Virus record (IMG/VR): IMGVR_UViG_3300043444_000502
Coordinates: 128,001-167,599 of that record
DNA length: 39,599 bases
Direction: 5' to 3' (one strand)
Origin: a virus
Taxonomy: Duplodnaviria > Heunggongvirae > Uroviricota > Caudoviricetes
In this document: piece by piece, positions 13,235-39,599 of the stretch
How positions within the stretch are numbered: position 1 is the stretch's first letter
Layout of the letters: every line of letters begins with the position of its first letter
Translations under genes and position numbers: made by a program
The notes under the pieces: model-generated
The model's input: only the letters and a program-made list of their open reading frames with translations
Databases searched by the model: none
Told to the model about the DNA's origin: nothing

Positions 13235-14317
13235 ATGGCGAAAACGTTAAAACAATTCTTAGAAGCTAAGTATATAACAACAGCTGATTATAGAATTTCT
13301 GCTTCAGGTAGAAAAGTTCACGGTCGTAAAAAGATTGCTGATACAAAATATAATGACGAAGATGGTGACGGAGATATTGATAAAGATGATATTAAAATTG
13401 CTGCTCGTCGCGATGTGAAAGAAGAGACTATTGAAGAAGCTGTATCTGTTAAAAAGCAAGATTATTCTTGGGGTAAAATGGTAACAGTTCATCATGGTTC
13501 TGACACATCATATCCTTTACATCCAGAACATCAAGAAGCAATTAAAAAATTAAAAGATGGTGAGCATACATCTTTTACTGATGAAACTAATCGTAAAGTA
13601 ACTGCTCATCGCGAAGGTGATAGCGTACATCTTTCTAGTAAAGGTACAAGTAAAAAAACTACTATTGCACATAGCCATTTCAATGAATCAGTTAATAAGT
13701 CTGATATTCCAGCATATCTTCGCAAGAAAACTGGAGATCAATTAACAACTAAAGATTTAGAAAAAGAACGTACAAAGAATCGTTCACATCCAGAAACTCT
13801 TAAGAAAATTAATGGCACAGAAGTTAAAGAAGAAACTGAGCAATTATCAGAAGTTTCTGGCAATATGTTAAAGACTAAAGAAGATGCTCGTCTTTTACAA
13901 CTTGCTCGTTTAGGTTTATTAGATAAAGACAGCATGGCTTTATTCAGAGTTTCAATGCAAAATTTAAAAGCTGATAAACAATTGTCGATTAATCAACGTG
14001 AACTTTTATTATCAGTCTACACAGATTTGGTAAATATTGTTACAGGTGATGATAGCGTATTTCAAAAAGTAAAGATTGACGTTCAACGTGAATCTGTAGA
14101 AGATACACATGAAATTGCTATTAATCACGCTGATAAACCAAAAAATGTTGATGCAACAAAAGCATTATTAAAACAACATAATGCTGTTCACTCTGATACG
14201 AGTGATAAATCAACATACTTTAAAGTGCATTCATCACAAGTTAATTCTTTGAAGAAACATTTAAAAGCTCAAGGTTTAAATGTTGATCATTATGTTAATG
14301 GCGAATATCGTGGATAA
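13235..14317 (+). CDS. modular putative internal head polyprotein
   Basis: MAKTLKQFLE start; VKEETIEE, FNES, VKEETEQLSE, QRES linkers. Confidence 0.7.
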   Translation: MAKTLKQFLEAKYITTADYRISASGRKVHGRKKIADTKYNDEDGDGDIDKDDIKIAARRDVKEETIEEAVSVKKQDYSWGKMVTVHHGSDTSYPLHPEHQEAIKKLKDGEHTSFTDETNRKVTAHREGDSVHLSSKGTSKKTTIAHSHFNESVNKSDIPAYLRKKTGDQLTTKDLEKERTKNRSHPETLKKINGTEVKEETEQLSEVSGNMLKTKEDARLLQLARLGLLDKDSMALFRVSMQNLKADKQLSINQRELLLSVYTDLVNIVTGDDSVFQKVKIDVQRESVEDTHEIAINHADKPKNVDATKALLKQHNAVHSDTSDKSTYFKVHSSQVNSLKKHLKAQGLNVDHYVNGEYRG

Positions 14318-37356: not shown

Positions 37357-37893
37357 ATGAAAACAGTTGGAGATAAATTAGAGAAATTTGTTGTTACTGG
37401 TATCAATCCCGGCAGTGATCAGTTTTTTGACATTACAGAAGAATCATTTGAAGGTAAGTGGAAAGTTATCGTATACTATCCAAAGGACTTCACATTTGTT
37501 TGTCCTACAGAGATCGTAGCTTATGACAAACTATTCCAAGATTTTGCTGATCGTGATGCAGTTCTATTGACTGGTTCTACAGATAATGAATTCTGTAAGT
37601 TAGCATGGCAAAAACATCATGAAGATCTATCAAAGATCAAGCATATTCAATTTGCTGATACGCAAAGAGATTGGGATAAATCATTGATTGAGCAATTAGG
37701 CGTGTTCTATGCTCCTGCTGGTGCAGCGCTTCGAGCTACATTCATTATTGATCCAGACAATGTGATTCAACATGTTACCGTAAATAACTTAAATGTTGGT
37801 CGTTCACCAGAAGAAACTTTGCGTGTACTTGATGCTCTTCAAACAGGAGAATTATGTGCTTGTAATCGTACAGTCGGTGGAGAAACACTATAA
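37357..37893 (+). CDS. ahpC: 2-Cys peroxiredoxin AhpC
   Basis: YPKDFTFVCPTE; GELCAC. Confidence 0.95.
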   Translation: MKTVGDKLEKFVVTGINPGSDQFFDITEESFEGKWKVIVYYPKDFTFVCPTEIVAYDKLFQDFADRDAVLLTGSTDNEFCKLAWQKHHEDLSKIKHIQFADTQRDWDKSLIEQLGVFYAPAGAALRATFIIDPDNVIQHVTVNNLNVGRSPEETLRVLDALQTGELCACNRTVGGETL

Positions 37894-38429
37894 TGGAATG
37901 GGTTGATCGTCTTAAAAGTAGTATTCCAGATTATGCGAAGGATACTAAATTAAACTTAGATGCTGCAATTAAACGCAGCACTCTTGGTGAAGATGCTCAA
38001 TATATTGCACTTGCTGCAGCTTTTGCAACAGGTAATGGAAAATTAATTTCTTGGATTGCACAAGAATTACATGGACCAGGCGAAGATGGATACGGTGGTC
38101 ATAATTTAGAAGTTGATGCAGCTATGACTGCAGCGTCAATTATGGCACAAAATAATGTTTGGTATCCATATGTAGAAATGGTTAATGATCCTGCATTAAG
38201 CGGTTTACCTGCGCAATTGCGTATGAATGCAATTGCAACACACGGAGGTACAACTAAAGCAAAATTTGAAGCATACTCACTAGCCGCATCAATTGTTGGT
38301 AAATGCCATTTTTGTGTGAAGGCACATTATGAAACACTTAAGCAAGAAGGTTACAGTGTTGAACAGTTACGTGATATCGGTCGTATCGCTGCTGTTATAA
38401 ATTCTGTAGCAAAAGTGTTAAATAGTTGA
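37893..38429 (+). CDS. ahpD: alkyl hydroperoxide reductase AhpD
   Basis: IPDYAKD.KLNL, MAQNNVWY, GKCHFCVKAH; coupled to ahpC. Confidence 0.93.
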   Translation: MEWVDRLKSSIPDYAKDTKLNLDAAIKRSTLGEDAQYIALAAAFATGNGKLISWIAQELHGPGEDGYGGHNLEVDAAMTAASIMAQNNVWYPYVEMVNDPALSGLPAQLRMNAIATHGGTTKAKFEAYSLAASIVGKCHFCVKAHYETLKQEGYSVEQLRDIGRIAAVINSVAKVLNS

Positions 38430-38471
38430 AAAAAAATCTCATTTCAACAAAAGTTTTGTATATATAATTCT

Positions 38472-38597
38472 ATGAACAAATTTTCTATAACTTCCCCTAA
38501 AGCAAGAATGACTACATGCGGTCAGGCGAGCATTCGTCCTGAGACATCATGGTCATTAGGCTTTTATCACAATCTTGATGGAGGTCTAACGGGGTAA
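38472..38597 (+). CDS. putative attenuator leader peptide (41 aa), not in the ORF track
   Basis: MNKFSITSPKARMTTCGQASIRPETSWSLGFYHNLDGGLTG*; its 3' end is complementary to the downstream terminator arm. Confidence 0.6.
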   Translation: MNKFSITSPKARMTTCGQASIRPETSWSLGFYHNLDGGLTG

Positions 38598-38630
38598 GTA
38601 AGAAACAAAAGTTCTAAAGAATTTTTATAC

Positions 38631-38667
38631 AAGCCCCGGACCTACAAAATCCGGGGCTTTTTTCTTT
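38631..38667 (+). terminator. intrinsic terminator (attenuator)
   Basis: AAGCCCCGGA-9 nt-TCCGGGGCTT-TTTTCTTT. Confidence 0.9.
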
Positions 38668-38714
38668 ATGGATCATAGACTTGCGCAATAGTTTACAAAA
38701 ATAGTAGACTACTA

Positions 38715-38743
38715 TGTACAAAAAGAAAAAATTAGGGTATAAT
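38715..38743 (+). promoter_or_regulatory. early promoter for tRNA-Gln
   Basis: TGTACA-N17-TATAAT. Confidence 0.85.
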
Positions 38744-38782: not shown

Positions 38783-38856
38783 AGGGCTATAGTGTAGCAG
38801 TAACACAGTTGACTTTGACTCAACTATCGTAGGTGCGAATCCTGCTAGCCCCGCCA
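38783..38856 (+). tRNA. tRNA-Gln(TTG)
   Basis: Cloverleaf; GTTGA-CT TTG AC-TCAAC; encoded CCA. Confidence 0.92.
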
Positions 38857-38885: not shown

Positions 38886-38914
38886 TGTACAAGATTAAAA
38901 AGTTATGGTAGAAT
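38886..38914 (+). promoter_or_regulatory. early promoter for the tRNA array
   Basis: TGTACA-N17-TAGAAT. Confidence 0.8.
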
Positions 38915-38927
38915 CTATCTTAACAAC

Positions 38928-38959
38928 TGATCGAAAGATCAACTGCTCTTTAACAATTT
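38928..38959 (+). promoter_or_regulatory. rrn-type boxB hairpin and boxA antitermination element
   Basis: TGATC-GAAA-GATCA then TGCTCTTTAACAATTT. Confidence 0.8.
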
Positions 38960-39062: not shown

Positions 39063-39302
39063 TATTTAATTGCATTAGGTTAGTAGCACCATTAGGTTGC
39101 TATATTGGTTCGAAGATGTTCGACGGAACACGCTGATATAGTTACATGAAAGATGGAAACGAAACTTTAGCTTGCGCTAAGGCTGAGACGGTGGTCACGA
39201 TGGAGTATGCTACACTGTAATGTGGAAATGAACTTATCGATAGACGATATCGTGAGAAGTGCTAGAAGCAAACGTTCATGACATCCTAGTGTAATTAAAT
39301 AT
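39063..39302 (+). ncRNA. unknown 240-nt structured RNA between two tRNA-Ser genes
   Basis: Ends pair in a 17-bp stem; several internal hairpins. Confidence 0.65.
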
Positions 39303-39392
39303 GGTGAATTGGCAGAGAGGCTTATTGCGTTTGTTTGCTAAACAAAAGATCCTTCACGGGGTCCATAGGTTCGAATCCTATATTCACCACCA
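39303..39392 (+). tRNA. tRNA-Ser(GCT)
   Basis: TTTGT-TT GCT AA-ACAAA; variable arm; CCA. Confidence 0.95.
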
Positions 39393-39478
39393 AGGCAAAT
39401 AGAGATCTTGTGGGTTCATCCACGTTCTCTCAACGTTTGTTAGTTTCAATGGGTGGTATAGAAACTAACACTAATTTT

Positions 39479-39553
39479 GGGCTGTTAGTGATAATGGGAG
39501 CACGTCGGCTTTGCACGTCGAAGGTAAGAGTTCGATTCTCTTACGGTCCACCA
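39479..39553 (+). tRNA. tRNA-Ala(TGC)
   Basis: TCGGC-TT TGC AC-GTCGA; G3:U70; CCA. Confidence 0.95.
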
Positions 39554-39559
39554 AAATAT

Positions 39560-39599
39560 ATCTCAGTAGTGTAATGGCAGCATCACAGTCTCCAAAACT
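39560..39599 (+). tRNA. tRNA-Trp(CCA), truncated by the window end
   Basis: D arm then CAGT-CT CCA AA-ACT. Confidence 0.8.

Follow-up and report, generated by a model that had tools for sequence, protein, structure and literature searches.

A candidate ribosome-mediated leader-peptide transcription attenuator at the head of a tRNA array in T4-like phages

The DNA analysed here, referred to as the window, is a stretch of 39,599 nucleotides that forms the final 39.6 kb of a viral record of 167.6 kb (completeness ~99%). The genome has a GC content of 35% and, judged from its sequence, the source phage is T4-like; its replicative helicase is ~62% identical to homologues in cyanomyophages and in the Methylophilales phage Melnitz, and it has a gene for a homolog of gp55, the late sigma factor of T4 (E = 1.4e-16). 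ARAGORN detects 28 tRNA genes and a tmRNA, two of the tRNA genes being duplicates within the overlapping ends of the record. The tRNA array begins at 38783 with tRNA-Gln(UUG) (38783..38856, plus strand), runs across the overlapping record ends and continues into the first 5.3 kb of the record. The neighbourhood directly upstream of the element described here contains ahpC (37357-37893) and ahpD (37893-38429), and no terminator separates ahpD from the leader. Between ahpD and the array, a preliminary description of this stretch had proposed a codon-sampling leader-peptide attenuator, comprising a late-promoter-like box, a short ORF, a strong terminator and a competing antiterminator.

The same module was found at 19 homologous loci in uncultured T4-like phages, on viral and metagenome contigs that represent at least five lineages. 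Loci were collected by means of the neighbouring PhoH gene, DNA patterns and peptide profile searches. A metagenome pattern scan returned 39 matches of which two were real, glycosyltransferase genes predominating among them, a profile search of 1.84 billion proteins contributed one extra lineage, and a looser viral pattern scan yielded nothing new among the matches listed. Among 50,697 records of cultured phages, no DNA or peptide homolog of the leader was found. The order of parts is the same in 19/19 loci: the box, 5-7 nt, the ATG and ORF, a spacer hairpin, and a G+C-rich terminator with a U-run. Past the terminator, where the fetched sequence reaches, one or two early-type promoters are followed by tRNA-Gln, tRNA-Ser(UGA) and tRNA-Ser(GCU); L090 differs from this pattern, and the sequence of L155 ends among the promoters past the terminator. 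The placement of the leader at the head of a tRNA array, described at first for the window, is thereby borne out in the relatives, as the fetched sequences show the array in every case in which they extend that far.

The gene upstream of the module varies, being ahpD in most loci, a membrane-protein gene in L108, tRNA-Arg in L155, rubrerythrin and rubredoxin in L089 and L159, and a sugar epimerase in L161 and L162. We therefore assign the module to the tRNA array and not to ahpCD. With ahpD as the anchor, the leader was found in none of 80 other ahpD-carrying viral loci, which makes ahpD a poor marker. These results bear on the possibility that the element is no more than the tail of the ahpCD operon, a 3' untranslated region with its terminator, and that the open frame arose by chance. 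Such an origin would suit the window, where the leader comes directly after ahpD without an intervening terminator, but it is contradicted by the synteny of L108, L155, L089, L159 and L161, all of which carry the module without ahpCD, as well as by the 80 ahpD loci in which nothing similar is present, and we consider it extremely improbable.

The module opens with the late-promoter-like box TATATATA (38459..38466, plus strand), which agrees with the T4 late consensus TATAAATA at 7/8 positions. As described before, the box lies 5 nt ahead of the ORF, with ATTCT between it and the ATG at 38472. The T4 late consensus TATAAATA occupies positions -13 to -6 (PMC1524935), so that a box in this register at 38459-66 predicts a +1 at 38472, the A of the ATG. 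We infer that a late RNA starting from this box would be a leaderless mRNA. Seventeen of the 19 homologous loci have GTATATATAA without change, their box differing from TATAAATA at one position; L161 and L162 carry the exact consensus (8/8) with the register unchanged. Genome-wide, TATAAATA is found at 22 sites on the plus strand and at one on the minus strand. Other exact or one-mismatch boxes precede the ATG of several longer ORFs by 5-6 nt, and the arrangement of box and ATG is therefore not unique to the leader. A late promoter with the start predicted above fits the conserved register, the 22:1 strand bias and the presence of a gp55 homolog. Two further readings of the region were rejected, namely a sigma-70 promoter, for which the spacing of the -35-like hexamers would be 14 nt to TATAAT or 16 nt to a poor TAAATC, and the alternative late-promoter register TATAAATC, which the window, L139, L159 and L161 do not preserve.

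The leader ORF (38472..38597, plus strand) comprises 41 codons and a TAA stop codon and, in agreement with the preliminary description, has no Shine-Dalgarno motif; such a motif precedes ~35-40% of the longer ORFs of this phage and 4-5% of random positions. The frame is open in all 19 loci, with lengths of 26-51 codons. In a nucleotide alignment of 13 sequences the start and stop fall in identical columns, and all eight gap runs within the ORF are multiples of three (3 or 18 nt), whereas the nine gap runs of the spacer measure 1, 2, 2, 2, 3, 3, 4, 5 and 7 nt, two of nine being multiples of three. A Trp and several further residues are kept on either side of the ORF indels, and the peptide has the conserved motifs MNK, W-S-L/M-G-F/Y and N-I/L-D/G-G. 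The dN/dS ratio of the ORF lies between 0.17 and 0.64 in eight of nine pairs, mostly at 0.2-0.5, and reaches 1.71 in the closest pair, which has few changes. Shuffles of a single sequence remain open in only ~7-9% of cases, yet the frame is open in all divergent lineages. We take it that the ORF, which looks translated, encodes a peptide under modest constraint. The leader was expected to be conserved upstream of tRNA arrays in relatives, and the 19 loci with their in-frame indels and coding-like evolution are in line with this. A dN/dS below 1 would also suit a peptide with a function of its own; no function was assigned to the peptide by any family or homolog in family and peptide profile searches. 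The invariant Trp raised the possibility of a TnaC-like arrest peptide, which was ruled out because anything from 7 to 28 residues separates this Trp from the stop codon.

The strong terminator reported at 38631-67 was confirmed as an intrinsic terminator on the plus strand (38631..38667). Its stem is formed by AAGCCCCGGA (38631-40, region 3) and UCCGGGGCUU (38650-59, region 4), separated by a loop and followed by a U-run to 38667. With -18.2 kcal/mol (z = -4.2) it is more stable than any of 200 shuffles; a simple terminator scan missed it because the loop is 9 nt long. The terminator is present in all homologs with compensatory changes in the stem, one base pair being C-G in seven sequences and U-A in six. 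No Rfam family reached its threshold, the best match being His_leader with 25.6 bits against a gathering score of 49 (E = 0.32), and the search of the element gave no T-box match. The weak matches to His_leader, Thr_leader and trpB were set aside, as they reflect a mere terminator-like shape. Of the long-range elements, the terminator alone was recovered by a global MAFFT alignment with RNAalifold. Since the helices shift between clades, we relied on folds of the individual sequences and on duplex tests that compare cognate with permuted partners.

These analyses point to two further pairings, of which one would compete with the terminator. Region 2 (38582..38605, plus strand) covers the 3' end of the ORF together with the stop codon and has two alternative partners. 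It can pair with the 5' arm of the terminator through AGGUC (38582-86) and CGGGGU (38590-95), the partner being GCCCCG-GACCU (GCCCCGGACCU, 38633-43). This is the antiterminator that had been described, and in the window its duplex energy is -18.6 kcal/mol, compared with -12.3 +/- 2.4 for dinucleotide shuffles (P ~0.007). Alternatively, region 2 can pair with region 1 (38482..38497, plus strand), which lies in codons 4-9 and forms the 5' strand of helix P1 in minimum-free-energy folds. Here UUUCU (38482-86) and ACUUCCCC (38490-97) of region 1 face GGGG (38591-94), AAGU (38596-99) and AGAAA (38601-05) of region 2. P1 encloses the hairpins H1 (38508-38556) and H2 (38557-38588), and a spacer hairpin, H3 (38607..38626), lies between the stop codon and the terminator; H3 is found in every lineage, with a sequence that differs among them. 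The trp/his-type geometry that had been recognised in the mutually exclusive pairings 2:3 and 3:4 is therefore upheld and is extended by a 1:2 anti-antiterminator, which the preliminary description lacked.

Comparison among lineages supports both pairings. Summed cognate energies for the ORF end and the 5' arm amount to -135.4, compared with -110.2 +/- 6.9 for permuted partners (P = 9e-5), and those for regions 1 and 2 in 12 lineage representatives to -156.1, compared with -129.4 +/- 7.4 (P = 1.7e-4), both permutation tests correcting incompletely for shared ancestry, with at least three or four independent compensatory events counted. The antiterminator, for which covariation with the terminator was to be expected in a genuine switch, persists in all lineages and shows compensatory changes in L116, L156, L089 and L161. 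Region 2 mimics the 3' arm of the terminator base for base, and the 5' arm changes to match: region 2 and the 3' arm read CGGGGU and CGGGGC in the window, UUGGGGUU and CUGGGGUU in L116, and UCUGAGGG and CUGAGGGG in L161, while both read UCGGGGUU in L156 and both read UCAGGGUU in L089. In the clade-B loci L112, L114 and L155 the cognate antiterminator duplex is no better than that of shuffles (P = 0.12-0.22). The alternative structure in those loci is a longer hairpin that includes the stop codon and the spacer and in which UGA is paired with ACUC in four loci and UAA with ACUU in two. P1 is seen in the folds of every clade, its sequence changing between lineages with complementarity kept: ACUUCCCC faces GGGGuAAGU in the window, CUUUCAACC faces GGUUGAAAG in L116, UUUUUAACCC faces GGGUUAAGAA in L156, and AACUCUGG faces CCAGAGUU in L090. 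Two compensatory double changes in P1 separate L116 from L156, and the helix is weak in L089 and L159.

A fold of this strength (z = -6.4 for the whole element; -42.3 kcal/mol and z = -4.4 for the ORF body) with covarying helices might also belong to a structured non-coding small RNA of ~190 nt that ends in the terminator, the open frame being a by-product. The T4 tRNA region likewise encodes stable RNAs, and the lack of a Shine-Dalgarno motif would suit an RNA of this kind. However, a non-coding RNA does not account for eight ORF indels that are all multiples of three next to a spacer whose indels are not, nor for the conserved positions of start and stop, the dN/dS below 1 in eight of nine pairs, or an open frame in all divergent lineages when only ~8% of shuffles of one sequence stay open. 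We regard this explanation as very improbable.

In order to follow the pairings as a ribosome moves along the leader, transcripts cut just before the 3' arm of the terminator were folded with ribosome masks, for 13 loci and then for five more. Among the 13 loci, pairing between the 5' arm and the ORF end is seen in 13/13 with codons 1-15 masked and in 0/13 with a 30-nt footprint on the stop codon. The free truncated RNA shows this pairing in 10/13 loci, so that the default outcome in the absence of a ribosome depends on folding kinetics. The folds of L090 form a textbook series, with pairing 1:2 in the free RNA, 2:3 with a ribosome on early codons, and neither with a ribosome on the stop codon. 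A mask in the middle of the ORF has a mixed outcome, the antiterminator being lost in L086 and L116. The stop codon of the long variants L089, L159 and L160 comes 20-22 nt after region 2, which a terminating ribosome would thus block only sterically. Taken at face value, the folds and the compensatory changes make a functional translation-coupled terminator switch a reading in which we have fair confidence.

We propose, as the probable function of the element, a ribosome-mediated leader-peptide transcription attenuator that heads the phage tRNA array. RNA polymerase with the gp55-type late factor would start at the A of the AUG and produce a leaderless mRNA. By the time regions 3 and 4 are being transcribed, a first ribosome that keeps in step would have reached the final codons or the stop codon and would mask region 2, whereupon the terminator would form and the transcript would end at ~38663. 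With a delayed or stalled ribosome, region 2 would pair with region 3, the terminator would not form and the polymerase would enter the tRNA genes. Where no ribosome is present, the pairing of regions 1 and 2 could restore termination. If it reports on aminoacyl-tRNA supply or translation speed in general, the element may provide a late-phase feedback on tRNA production, additional to the early-type promoters of the array.

Two promoters had been described past the terminator, and promoter-like sites are indeed present at 38715-43 and 38886-914. The first (38715..38743, plus strand), with TGTACA and TATAAT separated by 17 nt, is the first early-type promoter of the array, and the motif TATGTACA ... 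GGTATAAT has ~16 copies genome-wide. In the window and most relatives, the first tRNA gene is separated from the terminator by one or two strong early-type promoters. Because the array has promoters of its own, read-through can only add to tRNA synthesis. Early-type promoters fade late in infection in T4-type phages, and it is presumably at this stage that the switch would matter. L090 has a tRNA-like gene (Rfam tRNA, 39.7 bits) that starts ~7 nt past the T-rich tail of the terminator with no promoter in between, which leaves the leader as the sole visible way into this gene. On balance, we lean slightly towards a meaningful control of tRNA output by the switch.

The promoters of the array would also be compatible with an ordinary small protein gene that has a late promoter and a terminator to itself, whose peptide acts in its own right and whose pairings tune the stability or translation of its mRNA instead of read-through, and so would the dN/dS of 0.2-0.5 and the conserved MNK, W-S-L/M-G-F/Y and N-I/L-D/G-G motifs. 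This explanation gives no reason for the complementarity of the ORF end to the 5' arm, its compensatory changes and the mimicry of the 3' arm. The constant place of the module in front of the array, irrespective of the upstream gene, and the promoterless arrangement of L090 are equally unaccounted for, and no family or homolog lends the peptide a function. We therefore judge a plain protein gene to be improbable.

As regards what the attenuator would respond to, the content of the leader was analysed at the level of codons and of amino acids. The hand count given for the window proved exact: the leader uses 33 distinct codons and 19 amino acids, with Val missing, and includes all 4 Gly codons, 4 Ser, 3 Thr and 3 Leu codons. 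Relative to the codon usage of the phage, 33 distinct codons out of 41 are extreme (P = 0.0005) and are reached by 0/919 gene windows. Relative to shuffled open frames of the same base composition (mean 29.9), P is 0.10, and the codon diversity of the relatives gives P = 0.04-0.57 when compared with random open frames. The excess of codon diversity that had been expected is thus not upheld, and the diversity, lying at the level of random frames, shows unbiased codon use and nothing more. No run of one codon or amino acid that could act as a regulatory cluster was found in the leaders, in which 19-20 amino acids are spread over 40-51 codons.

Amino-acid completeness, unlike codon diversity, is unusual. 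All 20 amino acids occur in 13 of the 19 leaders and 19 occur in five, Val always being the absentee; the remaining leader, the 26-codon leader of L090, has only 14 amino-acid types. Among 41-residue windows of the proteome, 0.7% have a full set of 20, as do ~2% of shuffled open frames. Across the leaders, rare residues persist at shifting positions, His being spread over four alignment columns and Cys over five. When the positions shared with the window are held fixed and the rest redrawn, the probability of obtaining all 20 is ~0.004 for clade B and 0.004-0.013 for clade C, and for L089, with the positions shared with L159 held fixed, it is 0.014-0.04. As the idea of completeness was formed on the window, the homologs represent a fair replication. 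The retention of essentially the whole amino-acid set at positions that shift between lineages tentatively suggests that what is sensed is general aminoacyl-tRNA supply or translation speed and not a single amino acid. Matching the amino acids of the leader to the set of downstream tRNAs was uninformative in the window, where the leader contains Phe and the array has no tRNA-Phe, while the leader lacks Val and the array has tRNA-Val. The reduced leader of L090 precedes a reduced array of ~6 tRNA genes, a single case that fits the idea of sampling.

The leader may accordingly be pictured as a test message whose completion requires every aminoacyl-tRNA, so that a delay at any codon would keep the ribosome away from the end of the ORF, defeat the terminator and lead to late read-through into the array of ~26 genes; we hold this reading as a possibility and no more firmly than that, and the role of a general sensor for any amino acid is similarly tentative. 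A stall at almost any codon may give read-through, as had been suggested; a simple 1:2 model predicts that mainly early stalls would do so. The element could instead be a real attenuator with narrower sensing, which responds only to stalls in codons 1-12 (over region 1), to how efficiently leaderless translation is initiated late in infection or to the general coupling of polymerase and ribosome, the completeness of the amino-acid set being incidental or serving another purpose. In a 1:2/2:3/3:4 design only ribosomes on region 1 must free region 2, and the mixed effect of the mid-ORF mask, with the loss of the antiterminator in L086 and L116, agrees with this, as do the random level of codon diversity and the L090 leader, which works on paper with 14 amino-acid types. 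Narrower sensing is harder to reconcile with the presence of 19-20 amino acids in 18 of the 19 loci although His and Cys change columns, and with conditional probabilities of 0.004-0.04 for each jump between lineages, and to us it appears unlikely.

If the proposed attenuation mechanism is true, phages do not merely carry tRNAs but meter them against the actual performance of ribosomes, which bears on why large phages hold tRNA arrays. It would also bear on how phages cope with the decay of host tRNAs and with tRNA-cleaving host defences (PMC11464382, PMC11555353). Should the leader indeed act as a test message, it would place the tRNA supply under closed-loop control late in infection and would constitute a built-in response to the depletion of host tRNAs, whether by breakdown of the host's translation apparatus or by anticodon-nuclease defences; the link to host anticodon nucleases, raised already in the preliminary description, is speculation. 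Such an element would provide a compact natural sensor of translation capacity that is usable as a reporter.

Leader-peptide attenuation is textbook knowledge for amino-acid operons. In our literature search, no description came up of such attenuation acting on tRNA genes, occurring in phages or using a leader with the complete set of amino acids. The enterobacterial leaders trpL, hisL, leuL, thrL and pheL share with the phage element a short leader ORF, the exclusive pairings 1:2, 2:3 and 3:4 and an intrinsic terminator. In the trpL/hisL type the position of the ribosome decides whether the terminator forms, and the sequence of the phage element suggests the same. The trpL/hisL-type leaders carry a run of codons for a single amino acid and precede genes for biosynthetic enzymes, whereas the leader described here has almost all of the 20 amino acids, mostly once or twice each, and precedes tRNA genes. 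The element is furthermore phage-borne and probably leaderless, with a T4-type late promoter, and its ORF runs through region 2, so that the stop codon lies in or after this region. The multivalent attenuator of ilvGMEDA is comparable in that a single leader reports on several amino acids, but these are Ile, Leu and Val in clustered codons, while in the phage leaders 19-20 amino acids are spread over 40-50 codons. Antibiotic-responsive leader-peptide attenuators, such as those of B. subtilis vmlR (PMC9226507) and yxjB (PMC6851288), resemble the phage element in that read-through results from general ribosome stalling and not from the lack of one amino acid; they differ in that a drug stalls the ribosome at defined peptide contexts, and in that they control resistance genes, not tRNA genes, and are not of phage origin. 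Finally, T-box riboswitches bind uncharged tRNA directly and have no ORF, but they too couple tRNA charging to the choice between terminator and antiterminator, with translation-related genes downstream.

The loop of the leader terminator, CCUAAAAA (window 38641-38649), is kept in nearly all lineages, whereas the stem that carries it covaries. Part of this loop, GACCU, takes part in the antiterminator, the pairing of the ORF 3' end with the 5' arm of the terminator, in clades A and B. At L090, a homologous leader locus from an uncultured T4-like phage, a tRNA-like gene occupies 13591-13669. It scores 39.7 bits against Rfam tRNA, has an enlarged D-loop and was not called by ARAGORN; no promoter separates it from the leader terminator, whose T-rich tail ends about 7 nt before the gene.

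Directly 5' of the leader lies a slot whose cargo genes vary among relatives: ahpC/ahpD in the window (37357-38429), rubrerythrin and rubredoxin in the homologous loci L089 (13364-13945) and L159 (836-1440), and a PfkB-cupin-epimerase set in L161 (1-1475). Oxidative-stress genes make up two of these three cargo types, and the slot looks like an insertion hot spot adjoining the tRNA array. Elsewhere in the whole 167.6-kb record (G000:C1), late-promoter boxes were observed 5-6 nt upstream of the ATG in ORFs that are 96-148 codons long (G000:C1:72985, 48323 and 63242), and because of this spacing leaderless late mRNAs may be common in the phage.

The record overlaps itself at its ends (G000:C1:1-330 and window 39240-39599), but the two copies are not identical: they show a difference of about 80 nt in the interval from tRNA-Ser(GCU) to tRNA-Ala and a few substitutions. 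This suggests that the genome is circularly permuted and that its assembly combined two variants. Outside the window, ARAGORN called a permuted tmRNA with the tag ANDSAYALAA (G000:C1:16353-16742) and a tRNA with the anticodon CUA (G000:C1:5226-5300), possibly an amber suppressor; there was no tRNA-Phe among its calls on the record. Within the array, the spacer from tRNA-Ser(UGA) to tRNA-Ser(GCU) measures 240 nt (window 39063-39302) and is shorter in relatives. This spacer may hold another structured RNA; a search of it against Rfam returned no match except a weak sX4 hit overlapping the tRNA.

A family of strong early-type promoters of the form TATGTACA-a, 12-13 nt, tGGTATAATA is present at about 16 sites in the record (e.g., window 7122, 20455, 27135, 35741, 38713 and 38884). 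Directly 5' of the first tRNA promoter is an inverted repeat, TAGTYTAC and GTAGACTA separated by 7 nt (window 38689-38711). As the repeat is kept at equivalent places in the homologous loci L106, L112, L114 and L157 and recurs ahead of further tRNA promoters, it may be a binding site for a regulator. Downstream of both the second tRNA promoter (38886-38914) and a small hairpin with a GAAA loop is TGCTCTTTAACAA (window 38944-38956), identical to the proteobacterial rrn boxA. This boxA-like element is a hint that the tRNA operon undergoes Nus-type antitermination and that the phage has a proteobacterial host.
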